Below are positions 4,554 through 28,233 of a stretch of DNA of 32,000 bases, one piece after another. How positions within the stretch are numbered: position 1 is the first letter of the stretch; the number at the start of each line of letters is the position of its first letter. The translations under genes and the position numbers were made by a program. Source of the DNA: Acaryochloris thomasi RCC1774 (GTDB taxonomy: Bacteria; Cyanobacteriota; Cyanobacteriia; Thermosynechococcales; Thermosynechococcaceae); the NCBI RefSeq assembly GCF_003231495.1, contig NZ_PQWO01000024.1, forward strand, positions 1 to 32,000, given 5' to 3'. The notes under the pieces are model-generated. The model was given only the letters and a program-made list of their open reading frames with translations. It was not told the DNA's origin and did no database searches.

Positions 4554-7500
4554 TTAAGTAGACGGATCAAGGATTGTTGTTCCTGTTTGATCTTCTGCTC
4601 TTGAAAAGTAACCACCGCCCCCTGGCGTCTTAATGGTCAGCGTATCGCCGATCTGTACCGTTCTTGTGGTGCATCCAGCGAGCTTCGTTAGATGTCCCTG
4701 ATGCTTTAGTTGGTTCTGCCCCGTTTTGCCAGACTGTCCTCCCTGGAGGCCAAAGGGAGCTACTCTGCGGTGACCCGATAGAATGGAGACCGTCATCGGT
4801 TCTAAAAAACGAAACTGGCGAATAACGCCATCTCCCCCCGAGTATTGCCCTTGACCGCCGCTTTGAGGTCTAAGGCCAAAGTGTTCTAACCTGACCGGGA
4901 ACCGCCATTCCAAAATCTCGGGGTCAGTGAGGCGAGAGTTGGTCATGTGCGTTTGCACCGCATCTGCTCCGTTGAAGTTCGGCCCCGCTCCTGAGCCTCC
5001 GCAGATGGTTTCGTAATACTGACAGTTCTCGTTGCCAAAGGTGAGGTTATTCATGGTGCCTTGGCTGGCGGCCAGTTTCCCTAAAGCGCCGTACAGTGCA
5101 TTGACGATGGCTTGAGAGGTTTCGACGTTGCCTGCCACGATGGCTGCCGGGGGCTTGGGATTTAAAAAGCAATCCTCAGGGATATATATTTCGATGGGTT
5201 TAAGACAGCCTGCATTGAGGGGGATATCGGTGGATACTAGGGTGCGAAAGACGTAGAGAACGGCTGCTTTTGCGATCGCAACTGGCGCATTAAAGTTGTC
5301 GTCCTGCTGAGGTGAAGTCCCACTGAAGTCAACACGAGCGCTACGCGTTGGAGCATGCACTGTGATCGCCACCTGAATCTGTCGCTCGCCATCCATCACG
5401 TAAGTAAACTGCCCATCCTGCAGGTGATCAATCACGCGCCGCACTGACTGTTCCGCATTCTGCTGCACATGCTCCATGTAAGTCTGCACCGTTGATAGAC
5501 CGTAGTGATTGACCATCTTGAGCAGTTCTTGGACACCGCATTGATTGGCCGCAATCTGGGCCTGCAGATCTGCTAGATTTTGGTCTGGGTTTCGAGCGGG
5601 GTGGGGATGCTCTGTTAACAACCTCCGAAACGTTACTGCTTGAAGCTTTCCTTGCTCAACGACTCGGAATGGTGCGATCAACACCCCTTCCTCTTCGAGG
5701 CTTTTGCTGTGGGCAGGCATTGAACCCGGCGTGATGCCCCCAATATCGGCATGGTGTCCTCGCGAAGCTACATAGAACAGACGTTCTGACTCGATAAAGA
5801 CGGGAGTGACTACCGTAATGTCAGGTAAATGAGTCCCGCCACTGTAGGGATCATTAAGAACGTAGACATCTCCTTGCTGGAGTCGATCGCCTGCGGTCTC
5901 AATTACAGACTGAACGCTATCTTCCATTGAACCTAGGTGAACGGGGATGTGGGGGGCATTAGCGATTAGCTGCCCTTTACCGTCGAATAGTGCACAGGAA
6001 AAATCTAAACGTTCTTTGATGTTGACGGAATAGCTGGTGTTTTGTAGCGTGACGCCCATCTGCTCGGCAATGGCTCGAAACAAATTATTGAAGATCTCTA
6101 ATAGGACCGGATCCGGTGTGTCGGAGGATATTGGAAAGGGTTTAGGGTTTAGGGCCTCGGAGACTGCAGGAGCTAGAGCTAGCACTGCCGCTGATCGCGT
6201 GATCAGCAAATGCTGTTGCGGAATCACTTGGGCTTGCCAGCCAGGTTCAATCACGTTGGTGCCAGTGGCTTCCATAATCAAAGCAGGGCCATCAATCTGA
6301 TCGCCAGGGCGCAGGTCTTGACGTTGATAAATGAGAGTCTCATGCCAACGATTGTACGTGAAGATCTGTGTGCTTGAGATTGCCTGAGCCGGTCTAGAAC
6401 GCTGGGGGAGATCTTGTAAATCTGCAGTTTTTGGAGTGGTGGCGATGCCTTCTACTGATAGTGATTCCACTATTAGTGCTCGGTCAGAAACGATGAATCC
6501 ATAGCGCTGCTGGTGCAGGGTTTCAAATTCAGCTTGCATCATCGCTGGGTCTGCGAGATCTACTAGTAGTGGCGCGTCAGTGCCGGTGTAGCGGAGATAG
6601 AGTTGCGATCGCAACTCAACTTCATCCCTCACTACCCCCTGCTGTAAAAGATCATTCGCCACCATCGTCTTCAGCTTCTCTAAGTCCGATTCCAGTTGAG
6701 TGAGTCCTTCTGAAAGCAAAACCTCCACCGTTTGCTGCCGACTGGCCCGCAGATCGGCCAGCCCCATCCCAAACGCCGACAGCACCCCTGCAAAGGGATG
6801 AATCAAAATCTCTTGGATTCCTAAAACTTCAGCAATCTGACAGACATGCTGTCCCCCCGCACTCCCAAAGCAGCACAGCGTGTAGTCCGAAACATCGTGG
6901 CCCCGCTGCAGCGAGATTTTCTTAATCGCATTCGCCATGTTCTCCACTGCGATGGTCAGGAATCCTGCCGCTACCTGCTCTGGCGTCTGCACCTGTTTCG
7001 TCTCGCTCTGGATGCGCCGCGCCAGTTTCGCAAACGCTCGTTGAACTGGCTCTATATCTAACGGCAGATTGTGCTCGGGACCAAACACCTGTGGGAAGAA
7101 CTGCGGCTGAATTTTACCCACCATCACATTGCAGTCCGTCACCGTCAGCGGCCCACTCTGTCGATAGCAAGTTGGTCCAGGACTTGCGCCTGCCGATTCC
7201 GGCCCGACCCGGAACCTGGACCCATCAAAATTTAGAATCGAGCCGCCCCCTGCCGCAACCGTGTGGATATCCAGCATGGGGGTTCGCAATCGCACCCCGG
7301 TTAGCTCCGTCTCCAGGACTCGTTCATAGCTTCCCTGATAGTGGCAAACATCTGTAGAGGTGCCGCCCATATCGAAGCCAATCAGTTGAGTGCGACCCGC
7401 CAACGCGCAGGTTTGCACTGCCCCCACCACACCGCCAGCCGGACCTGAAAGAATGCTGTCTTTCCCTTGAAAATACTGGGCATCTACGAGGCCACCGCTG

Positions 7501-8222
7501 GACTGCATAAACATCAGGCGAGTGTCTCCCAACTCCGCTACCGTTCGGTTTACATAGCGTCGCAGAATGGGAGAAAGATAGGCATCGACGACGGTGGTGT
7601 CGCCCCGGCTCACGAGTTTGATCAGGGGACTGATTTGGTGAGAGACAGAAATTTGGGTAAAGCCCATCTCTTTTGCCAGGTCGGCGACCTGCTGCTCGTG
7701 GTCGGGGTAGCGATAGCTGTGGAGACATGCGATCGCACAGCTCCGAATGCCGTCATCATAGGCGACCTGCAAATCTGCCCGAGCTGCCTCTAAATCTACC
7801 GGCTGCAGCTCTTCGCCGTGGGCGCTATAGCGTTCGTTAACTTCAACCACCTGCTCGTACAGCATCTCCGGCAGGACAATCTCTAGAGCAAAGATATCGG
7901 GGCGATGCTGATCGCCAATCCGCAGCAAATCGGCAAAGCCCTTGGTTGTGATCAATAGGTTGCGATCGCCTTTTCGTTCTAACAGCGCATTGGTTGCCAC
8001 CGTGGTCCCCATTTTCACCACCTCAATTTTCTCTGTTGGGAGAGGTTGGTCTGCTTTGATACCCATCAGCTCTCGAATTCCCTGCAGTGCTGCATCTGGG
8101 TAGACAGATGGATTCTCAGAGAGCAGCTTATGAACGCTTCGTGAACCGTCTGGCTTGCGAGCCACAATGTCGGTAAAGGTGCCGCCGCGATCGATCCAAA
8201 ATTGCCATCGGAAATTCGTCAT
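4554..8222 (-). CDS. 5-oxoprolinase (ATP-hydrolysing), fused hydantoinase A/B (HyuA-HyuB) type
   Basis: The 1222-aa product starts with the characteristic N-terminus WQFWIDRGGTFTDIVA. A hydantoinase A ATPase region (GFDMGGTSTD) is followed by a hydantoinase B region (NDPYSGGTHLPD, GHHADIGG). Confidence 0.9.
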   Translation of the reverse strand: MTNFRWQFWIDRGGTFTDIVARKPDGSRSVHKLLSENPSVYPDAALQGIRELMGIKADQPLPTEKIEVVKMGTTVATNALLERKGDRNLLITTKGFADLLRIGDQHRPDIFALEIVLPEMLYEQVVEVNERYSAHGEELQPVDLEAARADLQVAYDDGIRSCAIACLHSYRYPDHEQQVADLAKEMGFTQISVSHQISPLIKLVSRGDTTVVDAYLSPILRRYVNRTVAELGDTRLMFMQSSGGLVDAQYFQGKDSILSGPAGGVVGAVQTCALAGRTQLIGFDMGGTSTDVCHYQGSYERVLETELTGVRLRTPMLDIHTVAAGGGSILNFDGSRFRVGPESAGASPGPTCYRQSGPLTVTDCNVMVGKIQPQFFPQVFGPEHNLPLDIEPVQRAFAKLARRIQSETKQVQTPEQVAAGFLTIAVENMANAIKKISLQRGHDVSDYTLCCFGSAGGQHVCQIAEVLGIQEILIHPFAGVLSAFGMGLADLRASRQQTVEVLLSEGLTQLESDLEKLKTMVANDLLQQGVVRDEVELRSQLYLRYTGTDAPLLVDLADPAMMQAEFETLHQQRYGFIVSDRALIVESLSVEGIATTPKTADLQDLPQRSRPAQAISSTQIFTYNRWHETLIYQRQDLRPGDQIDGPALIMEATGTNVIEPGWQAQVIPQQHLLITRSAAVLALAPAVSEALNPKPFPISSDTPDPVLLEIFNNLFRAIAEQMGVTLQNTSYSVNIKERLDFSCALFDGKGQLIANAPHIPVHLGSMEDSVQSVIETAGDRLQQGDVYVLNDPYSGGTHLPDITVVTPVFIESERLFYVASRGHHADIGGITPGSMPAHSKSLEEEGVLIAPFRVVEQGKLQAVTFRRLLTEHPHPARNPDQNLADLQAQIAANQCGVQELLKMVNHYGLSTVQTYMEHVQQNAEQSVRRVIDHLQDGQFTYVMDGERQIQVAITVHAPTRSARVDFSGTSPQQDDNFNAPVAIAKAAVLYVFRTLVSTDIPLNAGCLKPIEIYIPEDCFLNPKPPAAIVAGNVETSQAIVNALYGALGKLAASQGTMNNLTFGNENCQYYETICGGSGAGPNFNGADAVQTHMTNSRLTDPEILEWRFPVRLEHFGLRPQSGGQGQYSGGDGVIRQFRFLEPMTVSILSGHRRVAPFGLQGGQSGKTGQNQLKHQGHLTKLAGCTTRTVQIGDTLTIKTPGGGGYFSRAEDQTGTTILDPST

Positions 8223-11496: not shown

Positions 11497-12069
11497 ATGA
11501 AGAAACCTTTTGTTGTCGTCGTGACAGGCCGACCGGGGTCAGGAGAAACAACTTTGGCCCATCTTTTGGCTAACCGAATTCACTGTCCGGCATTTTGCCG
11601 CGATGAATTCAAGGAAGGTTTCGTGCATACTGTGGGGGGAAACCACGAATCGCTGGGCCAAGACGTGAATTGGGATATCTATGAAACCTTCTTTGAGACT
11701 GTCGATTTTGTGGCTTCAAAGGGAATTAGCCTTGTGATCGAAGCGGCGTTCCAGCATAAGCTCTGGGCACCTAAGTTACTCCCACTGACGCAGATTGCTA
11801 ACGTTTCTCTCGTCATCTGCACCGTCGCTCCGGGCTTGGCAAGATCTCGATGTATCGAAAGAAGCACGAAGGATATGACTCGAGAGCGCTTTCACGGTGA
11901 CTCGGCTATACTCGCCGCTAAAGAAGGAACTGAATTGTCGAAGTTTGATTACTGTCCACCCGCGCTGCCTGTGCCGTTGCTCTCTGTTGACACCACGGAT
12001 GGCTATTGCCCTGATGTGGATGAAATTATCTCCTTTGCCATGCAGTCAAGTCGTGCTGTAGACCTTTGA
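11497..12069 (+). CDS. P-loop NTPase/kinase-like protein (AAA_33-like) with an atypical Walker A (GRPGSGETT)
   Basis: The N-terminus KPFVVVVTGRPGSGETTLAHLLA follows the small-kinase P-loop layout, and RDEFKEG lies downstream. The codon at 11545-11547 is GAA (Glu) where the invariant Lys of GxxxxGK[ST] is expected. Confidence 0.7.
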   Translation: MKKPFVVVVTGRPGSGETTLAHLLANRIHCPAFCRDEFKEGFVHTVGGNHESLGQDVNWDIYETFFETVDFVASKGISLVIEAAFQHKLWAPKLLPLTQIANVSLVICTVAPGLARSRCIERSTKDMTRERFHGDSAILAAKEGTELSKFDYCPPALPVPLLSVDTTDGYCPDVDEIISFAMQSSRAVDL

Positions 12070-13856: not shown

Positions 13857-14170
13857 TTGAGCCGTTTGAGGTTGGCGAATAATCAGTGCAGCGAGTGAAG
13901 TTCTGTTCAGATGCCATTTCTGAGGGCTGTCTGTTACCTTTGCGACAAAAGTACAAATAACTTAGGCAATGTTCCGTATTTATACGGTGATACTCTTTGG
14001 GTAGAGAAATTAGTATAGATTTATCGGGCTGTCATACCCCCCGCATATAGCCCAGCTGAGTCCCCGAAATGGCAACTTGTTCCGAAAGGGCAAGACGCAA
14101 ACTAGCAGACCTAAAAACCATCTTAGGGGTATGGATGCTGTTAGTTCCGAAGGGGCTTTACATAATCAAC

Positions 14171-14204
14171 AAAAAGCCTCCGCCTTCTGGGTGGGGGCTT
14201 TTTG
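14171..14204. terminator. Bidirectional rho-independent terminator
   Basis: The sequence is AAAAAGCCTCCGCC-TTCT-GGGTGGGGGCTTTTT. It forms a GC-rich stem of about 10 bp (with G-U pairs), flanked by an A-run on one side and a T-run on the other. It could therefore terminate the minus-strand operon ending at 14366 as well as any plus-strand transcript. Confidence 0.6.
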
Positions 14205-14365: not shown

Positions 14366-15277
14366 TTATCGGCTGGCTTGATAAAGTTCTAAATAGCGGT
14401 GCAGATATTCCGTTAGTAGGCCGTGGAGAAAGAGATCTCTGGCAGCGTTAAAGGGACTGTTGGGAATCAGCGGATGGCGATTGGTGATCACATGGTTCCA
14501 GCGGCTGTCTCCTGTCAGGTTGCTGATATAAAGGCCAAAATTCTCATCGAGCTGCAGTGATAAAACCGCTCGGGCAAACTCATCGCTTGTTAAACAAAGG
14601 GAATAAAAGACCTTGAATAGCTCGATCGCGGATTCGAGATCGAGAATCCTGCACCAGCGGCGCTTGTCAAAGTCAATATTGACTTCAATGGGCTGAATAC
14701 TATCGAAGCATAACCCTCGCTCTTGAACCGCTGCCAGCCACTGGGGATGTTCTTCTTGGGCCTGGTGATAGTCCCAAACGAAGTTATACAGAATCAGATC
14801 ATGTTCTAGAAACGCCATGCGGTCGGCTAAGTCATGGACCGTTTTTGGGTACAGGGTTGAGCGTTCAATTTCAGGATCGGGACCATTCTCAATTAAGAAA
14901 TTAGCGATGTTAGATCCGAGGCCGATGTGGCGAATAATCAGGTAGCAGGCTTCGGGCGTAACGAAGTGATTGAGAAAGAAAGCCGCAACCTGATGCATCA
15001 AGCGATAGGCTCGGAACTGGAATGGTAATAGACGCTTGATCGTCATGATGATGGCGAGGAAGATATTTGCGATCGCTTTAATTGGAATCAGCAAATAGCT
15101 CCGGGTCCAGTGCTGCAAATCCTTGAGCATGTAGGATTTCGCCACTGGATCGAGGGGAATCGCCTGATCGATGTATAAAACATCCCAAGTGTTCGGATCA
15201 CGGCGATTATAGGGTTGAGGAGTATAGACGGGCGACTCGGAGCAACCCGGCGGCGTCTGGGAAGAGGTATGTGGCAT
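14366..15277 (-). CDS. Hypothetical protein (303 aa from ATG 15277) with one predicted hydrophobic helix, coupled to the upstream KAS III fusion gene
   Basis: This is a long clean ORF. The ATG at 15277 lies 1 nt after the TAA (15279-15281) of the upstream gene, with GGAG about 10 nt upstream. The track start at 15286 is a TTG overlapping the upstream gene by 8 nt. The hydrophobic stretch is SYLLIPIKAIANIFLAIIMTI. I recognise no family. Confidence 0.7.
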   Translation of the reverse strand: MPHTSSQTPPGCSESPVYTPQPYNRRDPNTWDVLYIDQAIPLDPVAKSYMLKDLQHWTRSYLLIPIKAIANIFLAIIMTIKRLLPFQFRAYRLMHQVAAFFLNHFVTPEACYLIIRHIGLGSNIANFLIENGPDPEIERSTLYPKTVHDLADRMAFLEHDLILYNFVWDYHQAQEEHPQWLAAVQERGLCFDSIQPIEVNIDFDKRRWCRILDLESAIELFKVFYSLCLTSDEFARAVLSLQLDENFGLYISNLTGDSRWNHVITNRHPLIPNSPFNAARDLFLHGLLTEYLHRYLELYQASR

Positions 15278-15278
15278 G

Positions 15279-17135
15279 TTATTCAATCTCCTCTAGCTGA
15301 AGTCGATAGAGTCGGGCCGTGACTTGAGCCGTTTTGAAAATTCTCTGGGCAATGTCGTCCGTCATCCAGTCAGCCTGCAGCAGTGCATCGAGCTTTTGTA
15401 GGTGCGATGCGTCGTTGTCGCCGTGGTAGGCCAAAAAAGAAACCTGCTCCGTCGATAGATTTAGCGTGGCCTGGATTCGCTTTGCCCATTGTCCGGCAAG
15501 CTGGTTGCCAACCCCTTCAATGATCATCATGCTGCCGATCAGATCAACGGGGTCGAGCTGAGAAGCTTTATGGAAGATAAAGGCTGAGAGAGCTTCACCA
15601 CCAATGTTCTTTTGGGCATTGAGAATCTCTATGGGGTTACCGCCTACCGCAACATAATTCTGCTCTAGCATTTGGAAGTCTCGATGCTCTTCTTGAGCAT
15701 GTTTGATAAAGGTGGAGCGGAGCTGAAAGTCTGTGAAATTAGAGGCTGCCCGGGCAATCCACCTTGCACCCTCAGCAACCTGTGGACGCAGGTTACGCAG
15801 CAGCGCCTGATAGTCCTCGAGCGAGAAGGTGCCGTTATGGAGCCTATGCACGAGGGGCACTGAGCGAAGTTGGCGCTCGAACTCAAGCCACGTTAAGGTG
15901 AGTTGACGCAGTAGATCGGCTGATTTTGATACCTCTATGGGGGCTGGCTGTTGCTTGCTCTCAGGTTTGTTGACTGAGGAGAATTGAGGACTTGCCGGTA
16001 AAGATTGGGGCTTAGCCTGCACAACGGTTAGCATCATGTATGCGGTAGTAAATCGTCCGCTTTCGGGTACGAAACAAAAGATTTTTTGGTCGGCCTGTAG
16101 TTTGCCGGAATGGAATAATTCTTCCAGCATCAGATAAATCGAAGCACAGCCGGTATTGCCCCTTGTGTAGAGGTTCGTAAACCATTTGTGTTCAGGAATC
16201 ATGCAGTTGGCTTTCTCCAGCAGGTCCACAATTTTGCTTTTGAAGAAGTGAGAGGAATAGTGACAGAGCAGCCAATCGATCTCTTGCGGATTCACACGAC
16301 CCATTTCAATTAACTTCAGCCAGCCTTCAACCCCGAGCTTGACCACCTGATCTAGTAGCCGAGTATTTTGGCGGAGATTCATGGCTCCAGCCTGGGCGGC
16401 TTCGATATAGGAAGGATAGTCTAGCCAGCTTTTATGACCATCTACGGACCCAGCAGACATGCAGACGGGATAGGCATTGGCATGAGAGATCAGTTCAATC
16501 CAATCGACGCGTAGGCTCAAACCTTTTGGGTTAGGGCGATCTTGAAGAATGAAGGCTCCGGCTCCGTCTGAGAGCATCCAGCGCAGGAATTCGGTATCGA
16601 AGGGGAGTGAGGCACCGGTCTGAATGGAGGTTTCGGCTTCAAATTTGGTGTGCTTGAACAATCGTGAGGCGAACTCGGAAGCAGTTGAGATCGCATTCTT
16701 TCGTTTCCCCAACTCAAGCTGCGAGATCGCATAGTTAAGTGCCGCAACGCCAGAACAGCAAACGCCTTGGGTCGAAACAATCTCCAATGGTGACAGCTCG
16801 GGCAGTTCACCATGAACCATACTGGCAAATCCGGGTACTAAGAGGTCTGGGAGTGTCGTTCCACAGGCAAGGAGGTCAACCTCTTGAGCCATCAGTGGAG
16901 CATTGGCTAAGCCATCTCGAACGGCATGGGCTGCCATTTGACTGTTGGAATAGCAGGTTTTTTGCTGCGCATCGATCGCGTAATAGCGCTGCTGGATGCC
17001 GTTGCGCTTGAGAACACATTTTCTGGCTCTAGAGGGTTGACCGTTGACCTGGCCAAGGTGGGCTTCTATTTCATGGTTGGGAATTGCATCCCCCGGCAGA
17101 AACTTTCCGATCTCATTGATATAGGCACTGGGCAT
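15279..17135 (-). CDS. Fusion protein: N-terminal 3-oxoacyl-ACP synthase III (FabH/KAS III-like) domain plus C-terminal heme-oxygenase-like (TenA/PqqC/CADD-type, putative diiron) domain
   Basis: The N-terminal ~370 aa have thiolase-fold KAS III features. These are an active-site Cys context (STQGVCCSGVAAL), SDGAGAFIL, a His context (LLCHYSSHFF) and an Asn context (TRGNTGCASIYLML). A Pro/Gln-rich linker follows (AKPQSLPASPQFSSVNKPESKQQPAPIE). The C-terminal ~215 aa are helical, with a spaced carboxylate/His pattern: VAEGARW, HAQEEHRDF, MIIEGVG, AYHGDNDASH. GAGGA lies about 9 nt upstream of ATG 17135. Confidence 0.8.
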   Translation of the reverse strand: MPSAYINEIGKFLPGDAIPNHEIEAHLGQVNGQPSRARKCVLKRNGIQQRYYAIDAQQKTCYSNSQMAAHAVRDGLANAPLMAQEVDLLACGTTLPDLLVPGFASMVHGELPELSPLEIVSTQGVCCSGVAALNYAISQLELGKRKNAISTASEFASRLFKHTKFEAETSIQTGASLPFDTEFLRWMLSDGAGAFILQDRPNPKGLSLRVDWIELISHANAYPVCMSAGSVDGHKSWLDYPSYIEAAQAGAMNLRQNTRLLDQVVKLGVEGWLKLIEMGRVNPQEIDWLLCHYSSHFFKSKIVDLLEKANCMIPEHKWFTNLYTRGNTGCASIYLMLEELFHSGKLQADQKIFCFVPESGRFTTAYMMLTVVQAKPQSLPASPQFSSVNKPESKQQPAPIEVSKSADLLRQLTLTWLEFERQLRSVPLVHRLHNGTFSLEDYQALLRNLRPQVAEGARWIARAASNFTDFQLRSTFIKHAQEEHRDFQMLEQNYVAVGGNPIEILNAQKNIGGEALSAFIFHKASQLDPVDLIGSMMIIEGVGNQLAGQWAKRIQATLNLSTEQVSFLAYHGDNDASHLQKLDALLQADWMTDDIAQRIFKTAQVTARLYRLQLEEIE

Positions 17136-17651: not shown

Positions 17652-18332
17652 ATGAAGATTCTCATGATTTTGACCTCCCACGATCGCTTGGGCGACACCG
17701 ATAAGAAAACAGGCTTTTGGCTAGAAGAATTTACGGCCCCCTATTACGTCTTTAAAGATGCTCAGGCCCAGATCACACTCGCTTCTCCTAAAGGAGGACA
17801 GCCTCCCCTTGACCCGAAAAGCAATGACCCGAGCCAGCAAACTGATTCTACCCATCGTTTTGATGCCGATCCAGAAGCCCAAGCCGCACTTGCCAATACA
17901 GTGACCCTGAACAGCATCAACGCTGCTGACTATGATGCCGTTTTCTATCCCGGAGGTCACGGGCCGCTATGGGATCTGGCAGAAGACTCTAAGTCTATTG
18001 CGGTGATTGAGGCGATGTTTGCCGCTGGGAAAACGGTCTCTGCTGTGTGTCATGCTCCTGCTGTATTTCGCCATACTAAGACGCCTGATGGCGCGCCTCT
18101 TGTGCAAGGAAAATCTGTGACTGGCTTTAGCAATACGGAAGAGGCTGCTGTTGAATTGACTGAGATCGTCCCCTTTTTAGTTGAAGATGAACTCAAATCT
18201 AGGGGTGGCAACTACTCCAAGGGCGAAGACTGGCAACCCTACATCCTCACGGATGGAAAATTGATCACGGGTCAGAATCCAGCATCCTCGGCGGCGGTGG
18301 CTCAGGCCGTTTTGAAGCAACTGCAAGGATAG
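17652..18332 (+). CDS. DJ-1/PfpI family (type 1 glutamine amidotransferase-like) protein
   Basis: The 226-aa product has the nucleophile-elbow Cys-His (VSAVCHAPAVF), the YDAVFYPGGHGP motif and the typical C-terminus LITGQNPASS. GGAG lies 8 nt upstream of the ATG. Confidence 0.85.
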   Translation: MKILMILTSHDRLGDTDKKTGFWLEEFTAPYYVFKDAQAQITLASPKGGQPPLDPKSNDPSQQTDSTHRFDADPEAQAALANTVTLNSINAADYDAVFYPGGHGPLWDLAEDSKSIAVIEAMFAAGKTVSAVCHAPAVFRHTKTPDGAPLVQGKSVTGFSNTEEAAVELTEIVPFLVEDELKSRGGNYSKGEDWQPYILTDGKLITGQNPASSAAVAQAVLKQLQG

Positions 18333-18455
18333 ATGCGCTGTACTCCCGATGGTGCAATGGGCTAAGGCAAGATTGTTATTGCTGTGGGTTTCCCTTAGAC
18401 TGTTGCCAGCGTGGCGGTCATAGACGCCAGCATGGTTCAGCAACGGGAGTCGAGA

Positions 18456-19796
18456 ATGGCTACGGCCAAAATTAAGCCAAAGGAACGAGATGCCGTCATT
18501 CAGGCTTTGCAGGCTGGTGTTGTTCCCCGTAAAGGTCAGCATCTGATCCAGGTGGGCCGTGTAGAAGAAATTAAGGCACTATTGCGTGACATTGAGCGGA
18601 TTACTGATGGTGGCTCTGCAACCCGCTTTGTGATTGGCGAATATGGTTCGGGTAAAACCTTCTTTCTGTCGCTAATGCGTACGATCGCAATGGAAAAGAA
18701 GTTTGTCACCACCCAGGCTGATCTCACGCCCGATCGCAGGCTCCATGCCACAAACGGACAGGCCCGTGCTCTGTATTCTGAGTTGATGGCGAATTTGTCT
18801 ACGCGCACGAAGCCTGAAGGTGGTGCCCTGTCTAGTGTCGTGGAGCGGTTTGTGACATCCGCTATTGCAGAGGGACGCGATCGCAACTTAGACCCCGAAG
18901 AAATCATCCGAGAGCGATTGGCTCATCTTTCTGAGTATGTGGGGGGCTATGACTTCGCCGAAGTCATTGCTGCCTACTGGCGGGGCCACGACTCTGGAGA
19001 CGATACTCTCAAAGCCAATGCTGTCCGCTGGCTGCGAGGAGAATTCACCACTAAAACTGAAGCCCGTGCGGCTTTGGGGGTGCGCTCCATCGTAGATGAT
19101 GCCTCTGTTTATGATCAGCTAAAGCTGTTTGCCCAGCTCGTGAAGCTAGCAGGCTACAGCGGTTTCCTGGTGTGCATGGATGAGATGGTCAATCTCTATA
19201 AAATGGCCCATACCCAGTCCCGCAAAACGAACTACGAGCAAATCTTACGCATCCTCAACGATAGCCTGCAGGGCACAGCCTCTGGTATTGGTTTTATCAT
19301 GGGCGGCACACCAGAATTTCTCATGGATTCGCGCAAGGGTCTCTACAGCTATCCGGCGCTTCAGACCCGTTTGGCCGAGAATAGCTTTGCTGCTCAAGGA
19401 CTGGTCGACTACACTGGCCCTGTGATCCGGCTCGCGAACCTGAGTGCAGAAGACTTATATATATTGCTCAGCAAAATTCGGATGGTGTTTACCAGCGGCA
19501 ATCCTAAGCAGAAGTTGATTCCCGATGACGGTATCCAGGCTTTCATGGCCCACTGCTCGCAGTATATCGGCGAAGCCTATTTCCGCACTCCCCGAAACAC
19601 AATTAAAGCCTTTGTCGATCTGCTAGCGGTGCTGGAGCAAAATAAGCAGGTATCCTGGAAGGATCTAGTCACTCAGGTACAGGTGAACTCTGAAGTAAGT
19701 TCTTCGATATCTTCAGCGTCTGCCGCTTCAAGCAATGGTAAGCGAAGCAAGGACCAGCCTAAAGCAAGCGAAGACCTTGCTGCTTTTCGACTCTAG
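18456..19796 (+). CDS. BrxC/BrxD-family (DUF2791-like) P-loop ATPase, stand-alone
   Basis: The N-terminal segment is ERDAVIQALQAGVVPRKG. It is followed by Walker A FVIGEYGSGKTFFL and Walker B GFLVCMDEM, then a long helical C-terminal region and a Ser-rich tail. From memory this layout corresponds to the DUF2791/BrxD family. The ATG at 18456 has GGGAG about 7 nt upstream. The track ORF starts at GTG 18411. Confidence 0.7.
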   Translation: MATAKIKPKERDAVIQALQAGVVPRKGQHLIQVGRVEEIKALLRDIERITDGGSATRFVIGEYGSGKTFFLSLMRTIAMEKKFVTTQADLTPDRRLHATNGQARALYSELMANLSTRTKPEGGALSSVVERFVTSAIAEGRDRNLDPEEIIRERLAHLSEYVGGYDFAEVIAAYWRGHDSGDDTLKANAVRWLRGEFTTKTEARAALGVRSIVDDASVYDQLKLFAQLVKLAGYSGFLVCMDEMVNLYKMAHTQSRKTNYEQILRILNDSLQGTASGIGFIMGGTPEFLMDSRKGLYSYPALQTRLAENSFAAQGLVDYTGPVIRLANLSAEDLYILLSKIRMVFTSGNPKQKLIPDDGIQAFMAHCSQYIGEAYFRTPRNTIKAFVDLLAVLEQNKQVSWKDLVTQVQVNSEVSSSISSASAASSNGKRSKDQPKASEDLAAFRL

Positions 19797-19831: not shown

Positions 19832-20287
19832 TCAGTGCTGCGACCGAATATGGTTCACGAGGGCACGTAGCCCCAAGGTATAGCTATCAGCACCAAAGCC
19901 ACTAATCTGGCCAACCACTACTGGCGCGATGTATGAATGATGACGAAAATCTTCGCGCTTGTAGATGTTGCTAAGGTGCACCTCGACTGCGGGGAGACCA
20001 ACAGATGCGATCGCATCTCTCAATGCGACACTCGTATGTGTGTAAGCTGCAGCATTAATAAGGATGCCTTGGTGCTGCTTTGCCGCACTTTGAACCGCGT
20101 CTACCAGACTGCCTTCATGATTTGACTGTAGCGGCTGAATCTTAGCGTCAAGTTCAGCAGAGAGCTGTATCAGAGCTTGATCAATGTCATTTAAGGTGGA
20201 CGAACCATATATCTCTGGTTCACGCTGCCCTAAAAGGTTCAAGTTTGGCCCATGCAGAACCAAGATGCTCAAGTCACCGATGCTCAA
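19832..20287 (-). CDS. aroQ: Type II 3-dehydroquinate dehydratase
   Basis: Family motifs are present: [37 protein letters not shown] and VEVHLSNI. There is no in-frame ATG. Candidate starts are TTG 20287 or TTG 20272, and the latter gives [10 protein letters not shown]. Confidence 0.9.
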
Positions 20288-20445: not shown

Positions 20446-21109
20446 GACAGGTACTGTTCCTAAAAATCAACATTTTAAAGGCAACAAATCTGCTGTAACA
20501 AGCTCGGTAAAACAGATTGTTAATGAAGCTAACGTTACTTTTTGTTAACTCTACTCTTCTATTTATAGCATGTTTTTCTAGAAGAGTGCATGGTGCAAAC
20601 TGCTGAACTGCAAGAACTTTAACTCTCTATAGAGCCTCTATTGCAGCCTTCAACTTGCAATGCTTCTATACAATATCGGCTCTGGGGCCGAATAAAAGTT
20701 AACCTAATGTTTCCTTAAGCTTATGGACAAAGATGCGCCGACCAGAGTATCTTCTCTCCTCCACTAGTGCGATAGTGCCGGAACGCATCGCTAAGTACTT
20801 GTCGTAATCTTAGGCATCTCTTCCTTTTGCTCCATCCGTCTAGCCCTTACAATTAAGTATGTGTACGGTCGCTAACCTATAGAGTGACTGCCTTCGCCCT
20901 GTTCTCTTGGCCTTACAAGCTAAGGTGCTTTTGTAAGCAATTACTGCCGGTTTTGTAACGCACCGTAAACAAGTGTTGCGAAATTTCTATCAAATTGTGT
21001 CAGTTCCAGTGTTGTCGTCGTTTTAGTTTCGATTTCTTTGATAGAGATCGTAAATATAAACGAAGGATCGTCAACAAACGTATACCCTGTCCCTAAGGAG
21101 TTCGCTTGC

Positions 21110-24100
21110 ATGTTCACCCACGTCAAATCCACGATTAGACACGTTGCGCCTAATGATTTGCGCGGTCGCTCCTTGATGAAAGTGGTCTATGTCGTGTTAG
21201 AGCCGCAGTATCAAAGCTCGCTCACGGCGGCAGCTAAGGCCATTAATAAGGGTCACTCGGAGTTAGCCATTGAGTTAAGTGGCTATTTGCTCGAAGAGTT
21301 GCGCTCTCCTGAGAACTATGAAGCCTTTCAAGAAGATGTCGCGAACGCCAATATCTTTATTGCATCTTTAATCTTTATTGAAGACCTTGCCGATAAGGTT
21401 GTCGAAGCTGTTCAGCCCCACCGTGACAATTTAGATGTAGCGGTGGTGTTCCCATCGATGCCGCAGGTTATGCGCCTCAACAAGATGGGTAGCTTTACGA
21501 TGGCGAATTTGGGTCAGTCCCAAAGTGCGATCGCACAGTTCATGCGCAAGCGGAAAGAAGAGAAGGGGGCCTCTTTCCAAGACGGCATGTTGAAGCTCTT
21601 GCGGACATTGCCCAAGGTGCTTAAGTACCTGCCAGTAGACAAGGCGCAGGATGCTCGCAACTTCATGCTCAGCTTTCAGTATTGGCTCGGTGGCTCAGAG
21701 GACAACCTTGAGAACTTCCTGCTGATGCTGGCGAATCGGTATATTCCTGAGCTTGAGGATAAGGTTCAATTTGCCGATCCGGTCACCTATCTTGATACAG
21801 GGATTTGGCATCCGCTAGCGTTGGAAATGTTCAGCGATGTTAAAGAGTACCTCAACTGGTTCTCTTCTCGTAAAGATATCCCTGAGGCTCTGCGGGCAGT
21901 CGATGCGCCTACCGTGGGCCTGATTTTGCAACGGACACATTTGGTAACAGGCGATGATGCTCACTACGTTGCGACCGTTCAAGAGCTAGAGTCTCGCGGC
22001 GCTCGGGTCATTCCCGTATTCGCAAGTGGTCTAGACTTTTCGAAGCCCGTTGAGGAGTACTTCTATGATCCGGCCAACGGGCAGACTCCGCTTGTAGATG
22101 CGGTTGTTTCTCTCACGGGTTTTGCCCTAGTCGGCGGTCCTGCGCGTCAGGATCATCCCAAGGCGGTGGATGCGCTCAAGAAGCTGAATCGCCCCTATAT
22201 GGTGGCGCTGCCGCTGGTGTTCCAAACCACTGAGGAATGGGAGGAGAGCGATCTGGGCCTTCACCCAATTCAGGCAGCGCTGCAGATTGCGATTCCTGAA
22301 TTAGATGGTGCGATTGAGCCGATTGTTTTGTCGGGTCGTGACGGGGTGACCGGACGTGCGATCGCACTTCAAGATCGTATTGAGATGGTCGCCCAGCGAG
22401 CCATGAAGTGGGTCAACCTCCGCCATAAGAAACGGGCTGAAAAGAAGTTGGCGATCACGGTCTTCAGTTTCCCGCCAGATAAAGGCAACGTCGGTACAGC
22501 CGCCTACCTAGATGTCTTCGGTTCTATTTATAAAGTGATGGAAACTCTCAAAGAAGAAGGCTACTCCATCGAAGGTCTGCCGGAGACGTCAGAAGAGCTA
22601 ATGCTGGAGATTCTCCATGATGCGCAAGCTCAGTACAACAGTCCTGAACTCAACATCGCTCATCGGATGTCTGTCAGTGAGTACGAATCCCTGACACCCT
22701 ATTCACAGCGTTTAGAGGAGTCCTGGGGTAAGCCACCGGGAAATCTTAATAGCGACGGTCAGAACCTTCTAATCTTTGGTAAGCACTACGGCAATTTGTT
22801 TATCGGTGTTCAGCCTACTTTTGGTTATGAAGGCGATCCGATGCGGCTGCTGTTCTCTCGCTCAGCGAGTCCTCACCACGGATTTGCGGCCTACTACACC
22901 TATCTAGAGAAAGTATGGCAGGCGGATGCGGTTCTTCACTTCGGTACCCACGGCTCTCTGGAGTTCATGCCCGGAAAGCAGATCGGTATGTCTAACGACT
23001 GCTATCCCGACACGCTAATCGGCAATATTCCCAACCTTTATTACTATGCGGCTAACAATCCGTCAGAGGCGACGATTGCAAAGCGACGCAGTTATGCCAA
23101 CACGATCAGCTACCTCACGCCTCCAGCGGAGAATGCTGGTCTTTATAAAGGGCTGAAGGAACTCAATGAACTCATTGGCTCTTATCAGACGCTAAAAGAC
23201 AGCGGTCGCGGTGTCGCGATTGTCAACACGATTATGGACAAGGCTCGTCTTTGTAATCTCGATCAGGATGTAAACCTGCCAGATGTAGATGCTGAAACGA
23301 TGTCCGCTGGAGAGCGCGACACGATAGTCGGCAAGATCTACATCAAGCTAATGGAGATTGAGGCGCGTCTGCTGCCCTGTGGTCTGCATGTGGTGGGTAA
23401 GCCCCCGACTGCAGAAGAAGCGATCGCAACTCTAGTCAACATCGCCAGCCTTGATCGTGAAGAAGAAGAAATCGTCAGTCTGCCCAGCCTGATTGCCCGC
23501 AGCGTCAATCGTGACCGAGAAGAGATTTTTCACAACAGCGATCGCGGTGTGCTTGAGGATGTGGAGTTACTCAACTCCATCACTGAAGCGACCCGCGCGG
23601 CAGTCTCCGCTCTTGTCCATACCCAAATTGATGAAGAGGGCCGCGTTTCTAAGCTGTCACCGCTGAAGCTATTCAACTTCGGCAAAAAGCAAGAGCCTTG
23701 GGTCAAAGCTCTTGCAGAATCCGGCTATCCTGACGTGGATGAAGAGACGCTGCAGCCGCTGATTGAGTATCTAGAGTTCTGCCTCAAGCAGGTGGTAGCC
23801 GACAACGAAGTCGGTGCTCTAGTCCAGGCTTTAGAAGGTGAGTACGTTCTTCCTGGCCCTGGCGGCGACCCCATTCGCAATCCAGATGTACTGCCCACGG
23901 GCAAGAATATCCATGCCCTCGATCCGCAGGCGATTCCAACTGCCGCAGCCGTGCAGTCGGCCAAAGTAGTTGTCGACCGGCTTCTAGAGCGTCAGAAGAT
24001 TGAGAATAATGGTGAGTGGCCTGAGTCTATTGCTCTTGTTCTCTGGGGCACAGACAACATCAAAACCTATGGTGAATCTCTTGCCCAGGTTATGTGGATG

Positions 24101-25087
24101 GTAGGCGCTAAGCCCATGCCTGACTCTCTTGGTCGCGTCAATAAGATCGAGCTGCTGTCTCTTGAGGAATTGGGTCGCCCTCGTATTGACGTGGTGGTGA
24201 ATTGTTCTGGCGTCTTCCGAGATTTGTTCATCAACCAAATGGCGCTGCTCGACAAAGCTGTGAAGATGGCAGCGGAAGCTGACGAGCCGCTAGAGATGAA
24301 CTTTGTTCGTAAGCACGCGATGCAGCAGGCCGACGATTTAGGTGTCAGTGTCCGACAGGCCGCGACTCGAATCTTCTCCAATGCCTCTGGTTCTTACGCA
24401 GCCAACGTAAACCTGGCAGTTGAAAACAGCAGTTGGGACGAAGAGGCTGAACTGCAGGAGATGTATCTGCAGCGCAAGTCCTTTGCCTTCTCGTCAGATA
24501 GCCCTGGCGATATGGACCAGTCTCGGCAGATTTTGGAAGCATCGCTCAAAACTGTAGATGCCACATTCCAAAACCTAGATTCCTCTGAGATTAGCCTCAC
24601 GGACGTGAGTCACTACTTTGACTCGGATCCAACAAAGGTGGTTTCGAGTCTTCGGGACGATAAGAAGAAGCCAAATTCGTATATTGCTGATACAACAACG
24701 GCGAATGCACAAGTGCGATCGCTCAGCGAAACCGTCCGTCTTGATGCCCGTACGAAGCTCCTCAATCCCAAGTGGTATGAGGGAATGCTTAGCCACGGTT
24801 ACGAAGGTGTGCGTGAGCTATCCAAGCGATTGGTCAATACAATGGGCTGGTCGGCAACGGCTGGTGCCGTAGATAACTGGGTTTATGAAGATGTGAACAC
24901 TACCTTCATCGACGATGAAGAGATGCGGAATCGCTTGATGAACCTCAACCCTCACTCGTTTCGTAAGGTGGTTAGCACTTTGCTGGAGGTCAATGGTCGC
25001 GGCTATTGGGAAACCAGTGAAGAGAACCTCGATAAGCTGCGTGAGCTTTACCAAGAGGTCGAAGACAAAATTGAAGGGGTTGAATAA
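21110..25087 (+). CDS. chlH: Magnesium chelatase subunit H
   Basis: The product is about 1325 aa and starts [30 protein letters not shown], the characteristic cyanobacterial ChlH N-terminus. CobN/Mg-chelatase motifs run throughout. The track start at TTG 21038 adds 24 implausible residues. Confidence 0.95.
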
Positions 25088-27081: not shown

Positions 27082-28233
27082 CTAGGAAGCTTGGGACAAC
27101 GTGCGAGACTGCGCATCTGCCATAATTTGTTCAGTGATTTCAAGCGCGGCGTGAGGGCGCCCCAACGCATTGGCCCACTGCTGCATCTCTTTTAGTCGCT
27201 CTGGGTGCTTGAGCAAAAACCGAACAGCAGGAGCTACCATTTCAGGCAATCGAATTTGCACCCCTGCACCCGCAGCAGCAATCACGTCTGCATTCTCTTC
27301 TTCTTGGCCGGGGATCGGGTCAACAATCACCATTGGAGTGCTGCGGGCGAGAACTTCGCTGGTAATTAAGCCTCCAGCTTTGGTAATCACTAGGTCGCTA
27401 GCCACAATCAAATCATCTACATAATCAATCATGCCAACTTTCTTGAGCCGCATGTGTGGCCCATCATCCATATCTTCCAGGGCCTCTAGCAGTTCATCAC
27501 TACGGCCTGCAGCGACGACTAAGAGTCCAGATTCCGGGGACTCTAGCAAATCCTGAACCATCCTGCGGACTCGCTTGGCGTTCAGGCCACCCCCAAAGAG
27601 AGTGATGATCGGTTGGTTGGGGGGAAGACTATGTTGCGATCGCACCTCCGCTTTCACCTTTGGCTCTGCAATCTTAAGGTCTACGGGAATCCCAGAGATG
27701 TGAAGTGCGTCAGCGTCGATGCCGCGCTGCATCAGCATCCGCTTGCTAATTTCGTTGGGCAGGAAGTACTTATCAACGCCGTTATTGATCCAGGTGCTGT
27801 GAACCACGGCATCGGTCACCACCACATACTGCGGCATTGAGACCTGATCTTCAGATTCTAGAAGCTGCAGTAAACGGCTCGGAATCTGCTGCACGCAGAC
27901 CACGATATCAGGATCAATATTGCGAACCAGTTGGCCCAGTTCACGGAAGAACAGTCGCTCTAGTTTGGCCCAAGCCAGATTATTGTCGAGCGATCGCTCT
28001 AAATCATCAACGTCGCTGCCTTCGTAGTATGCCTTGTATAAAATCGGCATGTTTTCGCTGAGCTGCTCATAGGTGCGCACGATCAGGCCCCGATAGATAG
28101 GGCTGGCGTGGGCCAGAGCGTCTTCGCTGTGAACCTCTAAATCGGGGATTTTAGAGAAGGCATCGCACAACGCTCGCGCGGCACTGACGTGTCCAGAACC
28201 GAGTGAGGCGTACAAAACAAGGATGCGAGTCAT
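27082..28233 (-). CDS. GT28-type glycosyltransferase of the MGDG-synthase/UgtP (diacylglycerol glycosyltransferase) family
   Basis: The N-terminus RILVLYASLGSGHVSAARAL resembles the G-rich loop of UgtP and plant MGD enzymes. The C-terminal GT-B half has VITKAGGLITSEVLA...P.VIVDPIPGQEEENA. GAGG lies about 9 nt upstream of ATG 28233. Confidence 0.8.
   Translation of the reverse strand: MTRILVLYASLGSGHVSAARALCDAFSKIPDLEVHSEDALAHASPIYRGLIVRTYEQLSENMPILYKAYYEGSDVDDLERSLDNNLAWAKLERLFFRELGQLVRNIDPDIVVCVQQIPSRLLQLLESEDQVSMPQYVVVTDAVVHSTWINNGVDKYFLPNEISKRMLMQRGIDADALHISGIPVDLKIAEPKVKAEVRSQHSLPPNQPIITLFGGGLNAKRVRRMVQDLLESPESGLLVVAAGRSDELLEALEDMDDGPHMRLKKVGMIDYVDDLIVASDLVITKAGGLITSEVLARSTPMVIVDPIPGQEEENADVIAAAGAGVQIRLPEMVAPAVRFLLKHPERLKEMQQWANALGRPHAALEITEQIMADAQSRTLSQAS

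Follow-up and report, generated by a model that had tools for sequence, protein, structure and literature searches.

Ketosynthases of the StlD/DarB family, such as StlD of Photorhabdus, DarB of Chitinophaga and Pseudomonas, and BrtD of Synechocystis salina, do not elongate acyl chains, but convert a 3-oxoacyl thioester and a 2-enoyl thioester into a carboxy-cyclohexanedione (PMC6836626, PMC10088813, PMC7154725). This intermediate is turned into a dialkylresorcinol or a stilbene, decarboxylation included, by the aromatase DarA, StlC, or BrtC (PMC6836626, PMC10088813, PMC7154725). A review of cyanobacterial alkylresorcinols from 2019 described clades of DarB homologues that are encoded in small clusters without DarA and whose products are unknown; one of these clades consisted of sequences from two strains of Acaryochloris, and another, larger clade extended across many genera (PMC6836626). 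In a review from 2023, the question of the DarA-less DarB homologues was still open (PMC10088813). In the present study, we analysed a stretch of 32,000 nucleotides from Acaryochloris thomasi RCC1774 (contig NZ_PQWO01000024.1, positions 1 to 32,000; hereafter, the window), in which a single open reading frame (ORF) joins a ketosynthase of this kind to a C-terminal heme-oxygenase-like domain and is followed by a gene of the DUF6999 family. The fusion ORF is best explained as the core of a self-contained three-component module made up of the ketosynthase, a heme-oxygenase-like dimetal oxidase, and DUF6999. The parts of this module in the window are as follows.

15279 to 17135 (stop codon included), minus strand: fusion ORF of 618 aa, with an StlD/DarB-type ketosynthase, a linker, and a putative heme-oxygenase-like oxidase domain
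16020 to 17135, minus strand: ketosynthase domain, aa 1-372, assigned from NF005293 and PDB entry 5gk0
15924 to 16019, minus strand: Pro/Gln/Ser-rich interdomain linker, aa 373-404, read from the sequence
15282 to 15923, minus strand: heme-oxygenase-like domain of the diiron oxidase/oxygenase type, aa 405-618, assigned from an AlphaFold2 model searched with Foldseek, from PF14518, and from an alignment
14366 to 15277, minus strand: DUF6999 gene, 303 aa from the ATG at 15277, assigned from PF22523 and the translational coupling at TAA-C-ATG

The ketosynthase domain shows full-length homology to StlD, DarB, and BrtD, with the same Cys-His-Asn triad and the same Glu154 position. The brt cluster for bartoloside, to which BrtD belongs, likewise contains no dedicated acyl carrier protein (ACP) and feeds from primary fatty acid synthesis (PMC6836626). 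In contrast to the dar, stl, and brt loci, each of which carries an aromatase gene (DarA, StlC, or BrtC), the fusion loci carry the C-terminal heme-oxygenase-like domain and DUF6999 instead. Neither a fused oxidase domain nor DUF6999 is mentioned in the 2019 (PMC6836626) or 2023 (PMC10088813) review, and a fusion of a ketosynthase with a heme-oxygenase-like diiron oxidase/oxygenase (HDO) is not mentioned in the 2021 survey of the HDO superfamily or in a 2026 mini-review on these enzymes. A full-text literature search found no characterised member of the fusion family, in agreement with an earlier interpretation of this stretch that was made from the sequence alone (hereafter, the sequence-only reading) and that knew of no characterised example.

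The fusion protein and its two domains

The fusion ORF runs from an ATG at 17135 to a stop codon at 15279-15281 as a single frame without interruption in the window sequence. Reading the same interval on the plus strand was ruled out by many in-frame stops. The two-domain ORF of 618 aa that the sequence-only reading had proposed is real and lies in one open frame, on the minus strand, and the elements assigned to it were all recovered: QGVCCSG (C126), LCHYSSH (H292), and RGNTGCAS (N327) in the ketosynthase, VAEGARW, EEHRDF, IIEGVG, and HGDNDASH in the C-terminal domain, and the linker as a Pro/Gln/Ser-rich stretch at residues 373-404. In an alignment of 30 sequences, this linker was unconserved and variable in length, with orthologues ranging between 606 and 674 aa.

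The translated ORF is 100% identical to protein P0001 of A. thomasi RCC1774. More than 120 clusters of full-length orthologues (100% query cover, 65-90% identity) were found in multiple cyanobacterial orders, from isolates as well as metagenomes, and the genera represented include Microcoleus, Kamptonema, Gloeotrichia, Gloeocapsa, Spirulina, Stenomitos, Leptolyngbya, and others. The sequence-only reading had itself named an assembly artefact of two separate genes as a possible refutation, and such an artefact of assembly or annotation might appear to be favoured by the separate genes that were found in two Hormoscilla loci (L082 and L086), in Stenomitos ULC029 (L026), and in all of the non-cyanobacterial lineages. 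The survey refutes this explanation, the probability of which we regard as negligible: the two domains were encoded in a single ORF in 81 of the 84 cyanobacterial loci, the orthologue clusters covered the query completely, and the frame in the window is uninterrupted. The ketosynthase-oxidase fusion is genuine and widely conserved in cyanobacteria. No signal of horizontal transfer was seen; the GC content is uniform throughout the window and, thus, the fusion gene looks native to the chromosome.

Regarding the ketosynthase domain, the best NCBIfam model was NF005293, which represents the StlD/DarB family beta-ketosynthases (438.7 bits, E=1.7e-131; curated cut-off, 450), and the DarB-specific model scored 392.7 against a cut-off of 550. 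The crystal structure of StlD (PDB 5gk0) matched residues 3-372 with an E value of 1e-88 and 40% identity. Residues C126, E154, H292, and N327 align with the StlD residues and were invariant in 30 orthologues; the sequences of PDB entries 5gk0 and 5gk2 differ from each other at the position of the His aligned with H292. Several orthologues bear the NCBI product name 'StlD/DarB family beta-ketosynthase'.

The sequence-only reading had called this half of the protein a FabH-like beta-ketoacyl-ACP synthase III (KAS III). Its description as a thiolase-fold condensing enzyme with an intact Cys/His/Asn triad stands, and the fold, the triad, and the Pfam domain ACP_syn_III_C, which the ketosynthase domain matched, are all shared with FabH, whereas the FabH label did not survive the profile scores. 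The FabH models PRK09352 and TIGR00747 gave 79.7 against a cut-off of 249 and 64.6 against a cut-off of 292.1, respectively, and a FabH/KAS III identity was ruled out on this basis (65-80 bits versus cut-offs of 249-292). As judged from its profile and alignment matches, the N-terminal domain is a ketosynthase of the StlD/DarB type and belongs to the head-to-head cyclising branch. Since it is of the StlD/DarB rather than the FabH type, the expected chemistry is a head-to-head Claisen condensation with Michael cyclisation, and not simple Claisen elongation.

The C-terminal domain was modelled with AlphaFold from an alignment of 47 sequences that included non-cyanobacterial stand-alone homologues. 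The model contains ten helices (predicted local distance difference test (pLDDT), 95.4; predicted template modelling score (pTM), 0.91), and the seven-helix heme-oxygenase-like fold was recovered in it by Foldseek. In comparisons with the PDB, the leading matches were 3dde, an uncharacterised heme-oxygenase-like protein (Sden_3740; template modelling score (TM), 0.88), and CADD (TM 0.87; root-mean-square deviation (rmsd), 2.1 A), and UndA (TM 0.78), FlcD (TM 0.75), and TenA and PqqC (TM 0.73-0.78) followed at lower ranks. At the level of the predicted structure, the C-terminal domain is confidently of the heme-oxygenase-like fold. The heme-oxygenase-like fold proposed in the sequence-only reading is, thus, upheld by a separate structure prediction, with CADD and UndA among the structural matches; the TenA-type fold, which it had considered to be the alternative, scored lower (as did PqqC) than 3dde and CADD, and the His, Asp, and Glu at the ligand positions are invariant.

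The Pfam family PF14518, which contains the HDOs RohS and SznF, matched the A. thomasi domain with 25.4 bits (E=1.4e-5; gathering score, 28.9). Most orthologues have a precomputed PF14518 match, and the family profile matched 3dde with an E value of 5e-10. No NCBIfam model matched the C-terminal domain, even at E values up to 10. Across phyla in the 47-sequence alignment, H479, E483, H484, D486, E514, E540, H571, D575, and H578 were invariant, and E455 was either Glu or Asp.

Candidate metal ligands are H479, E483, D486, E540, H571, D575, and H578. E540 occupies the position expected for the Glu of the second ligand helix, and the spacing H571-x3-D575-x2-H578 is identical to that of H311/D315/H318 in SznF, and, thus, the Glu (IIEGVG) and the HxxxDxxH motif (HGDNDASH) noted in the sequence-only reading proved to be invariant and canonically spaced. 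Its 'ExxH' motif at EEHRDF is not literally present. The first ligand helix carries the invariant pattern H479-x3-E483-H484-x-D486 instead of E...H, and, in a profile alignment to 3dde, D486 falls opposite the His of the ExxH motif of 3dde, with H479 and E483 conserved. With their i, i+4, i+7 spacing, H479, E483, and D486 lie on one helical face, and a putative 3His/3-4carboxylate dimetal site is, thus, plausible in this domain. The C-terminal domain shares the fold, the second-helix Glu, and the third-helix HxxxDxxH with CADD, UndA, SznF, BesC, FlcD, and 3dde, but shows only 15-19% identity to these proteins and differs from them in the variant first ligand helix.

An improbable alternative is that this domain represents a metal-free heme-oxygenase fold, similar to TenA, PqqC, or a binding module, and functions as a cofactor-less oxidase, a hydrolase, or a binding or regulatory domain. 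The significant Foldseek matches to TenA and PqqC, the PF14518 score below the gathering cut-off for the A. thomasi protein, and the replacement of the canonical His by Asp in the first ligand helix are consistent with such a fold; however, the top matches are of the metal-binding type (3dde with its full ligand motif, and CADD; rmsd of about 2.1-2.2 A), and ten His, Asp, and Glu residues at or beside the ligand positions are invariant or nearly so across phyla, which is difficult to account for if the domain has no metal site.

Many of the stand-alone heme-oxygenase-like proteins, which are 200-240 aa in length, carry the Joint Genome Institute (JGI) name '3-oxoacyl-ACP synthase III', and an entry in the list of Foldseek matches, the heme-oxygenase-like PDB structure 3bjd, is entitled 'putative 3-oxoacyl-ACP synthase'. 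These names were probably transferred from the annotation of ketosynthase-oxidase fusions.

DUF6999 and the distribution of the gene set

The sequence-only reading had treated the fusion as a lone cassette, but the DUF6999 gene begins 1 nt past the fusion stop, at a TAA-C-ATG junction, and a DUF6999 gene was located downstream of the fusion in 83 of the 88 loci compared; we regard DUF6999 as an obligate partner of the fusion. Among the five loci without an adjacent DUF6999 gene, three were on short contigs and two were truly devoid of one within 6 kb; the genome of one of the latter carries DUF6999 elsewhere (P0350). All-against-all clustering of the genes around the 88 loci revealed no other conserved family beside the cassette, and no DarA, ACP, thioesterase, or transporter, and the statement in the sequence-only reading that an ACP and a thioesterase are missing was, thus, extended to the whole set of loci.

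The ketosynthase and oxidase were in one ORF in 81 of the 88 loci and split in seven, namely, the four non-cyanobacterial loci and the Hormoscilla and Stenomitos loci described above. Relatives of the C-terminal domain were detected in at least 569 species-representative genomes, and the best 80 were all cyanobacteria. In the non-cyanobacterial loci (Microthrixaceae, Alphaproteobacteria, and further metagenomic lineages), the three components are encoded by separate, overlapping genes in the same order. Identity between cyanobacteria and other phyla was 53-56% for the heme-oxygenase-like part, 42-45% for the ketosynthase, and 25-35% for DUF6999. In addition, a metagenomic protein of 868 aa that is truncated at its end (P0507) contains the ketosynthase, heme-oxygenase-like, and DUF6999 parts in a single chain, and a metagenomic fragment of 316 aa (P0477) has the heme-oxygenase-like part joined to DUF6999. 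Either these two proteins are natural "Rosetta-stone" fusions, or they are artefacts of frameshifts where the genes overlap.

Two lineage-specific neighbours were also observed. In Microthrixaceae only (L005/L006, 9607-11919), a gene for an MMPL-family transporter follows the cassette with overlapping stop and start codons, which hints at an exported lipid product in that lineage. In two non-cyanobacterial loci (L089, 7141-7725; L091, 7192-7809), an unannotated gene of approximately 195-205 aa with no Pfam match is located immediately upstream of the ketosynthase gene and may provide that lineage with a fourth component.

The DUF6999 protein matched PF22523 with 351.3 bits (E=3.9e-105), and its family is small, with 288 representatives at 50% identity. 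AlphaFold predicted an all-helical structure (pLDDT 85). Foldseek found no match to its fold in the PDB (best E=0.6, TM of about 0.1), a profile search against PDB sequences returned no match, hhalign found no relation to the heme-oxygenase-like domain, and neither NCBIfam (E up to 10) nor PADLOC gave a match. On these null results, the assignment of DUF6999 to a known fold or family was ruled out. An HD domain was considered due to the similar spacing of H117...H159-D160...D213, and was dropped because no structural support for it was found.

The residues of DUF6999 that are invariant across phyla are E109, R116, H117, H159, D160, N165, D213, R236, D244, E245, H285, and E290. Such a set resembles an active site and may form a metal site. 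Since the stretch from residue 62 to residue 80 is strongly hydrophobic (Kyte-Doolittle 2.28), DUF6999 may be associated with the membrane. DUF6999, which is rich in invariant His, Asp, and Glu, is probably an enzyme of the same pathway as the fusion protein.

A possible route and its alternatives

Taken together, our analysis suggests that the three-part set probably makes an oxidised lipid-derived ring compound. The products of DarB and BrtD are carboxy-cyclohexanediones for which an aromatase is needed, and decarboxylation accompanies aromatisation (PMC6836626, PMC10088813). Since the StlD residues are all retained in the fusion protein, the simplest expectation is that the same cyclisation takes place and that an aromatising or decarboxylating step is then required. 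HDOs are known to use fatty acid substrates and to install olefins through C-C cleavage (PMC13108848). We tentatively propose, as a route that has a reasonable chance of being correct but falls short of an even one, that the ketosynthase makes a carboxy-cyclohexanedione, that the oxidase domain replaces DarA by an O2-dependent decarboxylation similar to that of UndA, and that DUF6999 acts in the same pathway.

In this route, the ketosynthase would take a 3-oxoacyl and a 2-enoyl thioester from primary fatty acid synthesis, without a dedicated ACP, as BrtD does, and head-to-head Michael addition and Claisen condensation would give a 2,5-dialkyl-4-carboxy-cyclohexane-1,3-dione. The free beta-keto acid would be bound by the tethered oxidase domain at an Fe2 (or Fe/Mn) site, where O2-driven abstraction of the C5 hydrogen, which is beta to the carboxylate, would expel CO2 in the manner of UndA acting on fatty acids and leave a C4=C5 double bond, with tautomerisation then yielding a 2,5-dialkylresorcinol. 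The oxidase domain would, thus, be a non-homologous stand-in for the DarA aromatase, which is not present at these loci; it would hold the same position in the pathway as DarA, StlC, or BrtC, to which no homology was detected. Its presumed substrate, a lipid-derived ring acid, would also set it apart from the described HDOs, the substrates of which are amino acids or plain fatty acids. DUF6999 may release the carboxy intermediate from the thioester, or it may further oxidise, tailor, or handle the lipid product, and this is the weakest part of the proposal.

Several points weigh against the module and the route as outlined above. Identity between the ketosynthase and StlD is only 40%, and the score of the former is just below the cut-off of NF005293. 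The 2019 review noted that DarB and StlD are closer to the DarA-linked enzymes of cyanobacteria than the DarA-less clades are, and that these clades may not make cyclohexanediones (PMC6836626). In the oxidase domain of A. thomasi, the PF14518 score is below the gathering score and the first ligand helix is non-canonical, with D486 at the position of the His in 3dde. The triple fusion P0507 could be a frameshift artefact of metagenome assembly. The role of DUF6999 is a guess; should it turn out to be the aromatase, another function would have to be assigned to the oxidase domain.

In an alternative that we consider to be possible, although on the unlikely side, the same module carries out a different oxidation and ends in a product other than a dialkylresorcinol. 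The cyclohexanedione could be hydroxylated, desaturated, or cleaved at a C-C bond, or an uncyclised 2-alkyl-3-keto acid could be decarboxylated in the manner of UndA to yield an enone or olefin, and DUF6999 may be the aromatase or another tailoring enzyme. HDO chemistry is diverse and includes N-oxygenation, olefin installation, desaturation, and rearrangements (PMC13108848), and the doubt expressed in the 2019 review on the formation of carboxy-cyclohexanediones by these clades (PMC6836626) is in line with such an outcome. Moreover, with the extra invariant carboxylates E455, E483/D486, and E514, the site may be similar to the 3His/4carboxylate type, which in SznF accompanies oxygenation and not olefin formation, and the invariant polar residues of DUF6999 are enzyme-like. 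On the other hand, the retention of all StlD residues makes the same cyclisation the simplest assumption, and no particular alternative product is directly supported.

The order of the two reactions may also be reversed, with the oxidase acting before the ketosynthase on a fatty acyl group, by desaturation or by an activation resembling beta-oxidation, to supply a partner for the condensation. UndA-type HDOs act directly on fatty acids (PMC13108848), and, since cyanobacteria are without canonical beta-oxidation (PMC6836626), an unusual partner might conceivably be supplied by a dedicated pathway. However, 3-oxoacyl-ACP and 2-enoyl-ACP are ordinary intermediates of fatty acid synthesis and BrtD needs no helper (PMC6836626), and the oxidase is located downstream of the ketosynthase, by gene or domain order, in every lineage. 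We consider this reversed order to be quite unlikely.

Riboswitch, neighbouring genes, and implications

Two further elements were located beyond the 3' end of the DUF6999 gene.

14061 to 14151, plus strand: c-di-GMP-I riboswitch aptamer (cyclic di-GMP, c-di-GMP), Rfam RF01051, 45.5 bits against a gathering score of 35
about 14170 to 14198, either strand: G+C-rich hairpin flanked by an A-tract and a T-tract, read from the sequence and conserved in locus L092

The riboswitch is located between mutL and the stop codon of DUF6999, where it converges on the 3' end of the operon in antisense orientation. The hairpin is strong and would plausibly terminate transcription from both directions, that of the operon on the minus strand and that of the riboswitch RNA on the plus strand. 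The 3' strand of the closing stem of the aptamer (GGGGCUUU) could pair alternatively with the 5' arm of the hairpin (AAAGCCUC), and this pairing would amount to an antiterminator arrangement. A syntenic relative (L092, 6142-6232, minus strand) carries the riboswitch at the equivalent position and pointing the same way; approximately 95% of the aptamer and hairpin sequence is conserved, with changes on both arms of the hairpin, and the flanks diverge. A comparison of the window with L092 revealed no conserved ORF downstream of the riboswitch. The riboswitch was not found by Rfam in 12 other loci (L094 and 11 more), nor by a regular-expression scan in the rest, and a role as a general companion of the cassette was ruled out because it is present only in the window and in this relative. 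The riboswitch may be a c-di-GMP-gated element that acts on the cassette by antisense transcription or transcriptional interference, or it may be an orphan riboswitch RNA.

A broader interpretation, which we raise as a speculative and rather doubtful one, is that the trio represents an unrecognised, phylum-spanning pathway to a new lipid-derived metabolite or signal rather than to a plain dialkylresorcinol. The oxidase, with its unusual His/Glu/Asp first helix, would convert a cyclohexanedione or beta-keto acid by new chemistry, DUF6999 would be a metalloenzyme with a new fold, and the output in the A. thomasi lineage would be gated by c-di-GMP through antisense read-through under the control of the riboswitch.

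Regarding the other genes in the window, a BrxD-like ATPase gene (18411-19796, plus strand) matched the PADLOC model for SngB of the Shango defence system with an E value of 1.5e-182. It is directly preceded by a gene of the DJ-1/PfpI family (17652-18332, plus strand), and no SngA or SngC partner was evident between it and aroQ (19832-20287, minus strand). An ORF for a small P-loop kinase resembling zeta-toxin/AAA_33 proteins (11497-12069, plus strand) is located between cysS and mutL. The remaining genes noted are of a housekeeping nature: a fused hydantoinase A/B protein of the 5-oxoprolinase type (4554-8222, minus strand, 1222 aa), a CobN/Mg-chelatase large subunit (21038-25087, plus strand), and a glycosyltransferase similar to monogalactosyldiacylglycerol (MGDG) synthase (27082-28233, minus strand). 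None of these three is conserved beside the cassette elsewhere.

Reviews regard 'DarB homologues without aromatase' as an open problem (PMC6836626, PMC10088813), and the oxidase that is fused to the ketosynthase was apparently overlooked there. The ketosynthase-oxidase fusion also probably accounts for the misannotation of stand-alone heme-oxygenase-like proteins as '3-oxoacyl-ACP synthase III'. For the HDO field, it adds a natural fusion of a ketosynthase and an oxidase in which the ligand motif is a variant and the substrate class is probably new, and the DUF6999 family gains a pathway context. The system is best described as a widespread three-component variant of the DarB/StlD head-to-head pathway, in which an oxidase of the HDO type and DUF6999, a protein with an apparently new fold, would stand in the place of DarA. 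The orphan DarA-less DarB clades become a directly testable three-protein pathway, complete cassettes for which are also found in other phyla.

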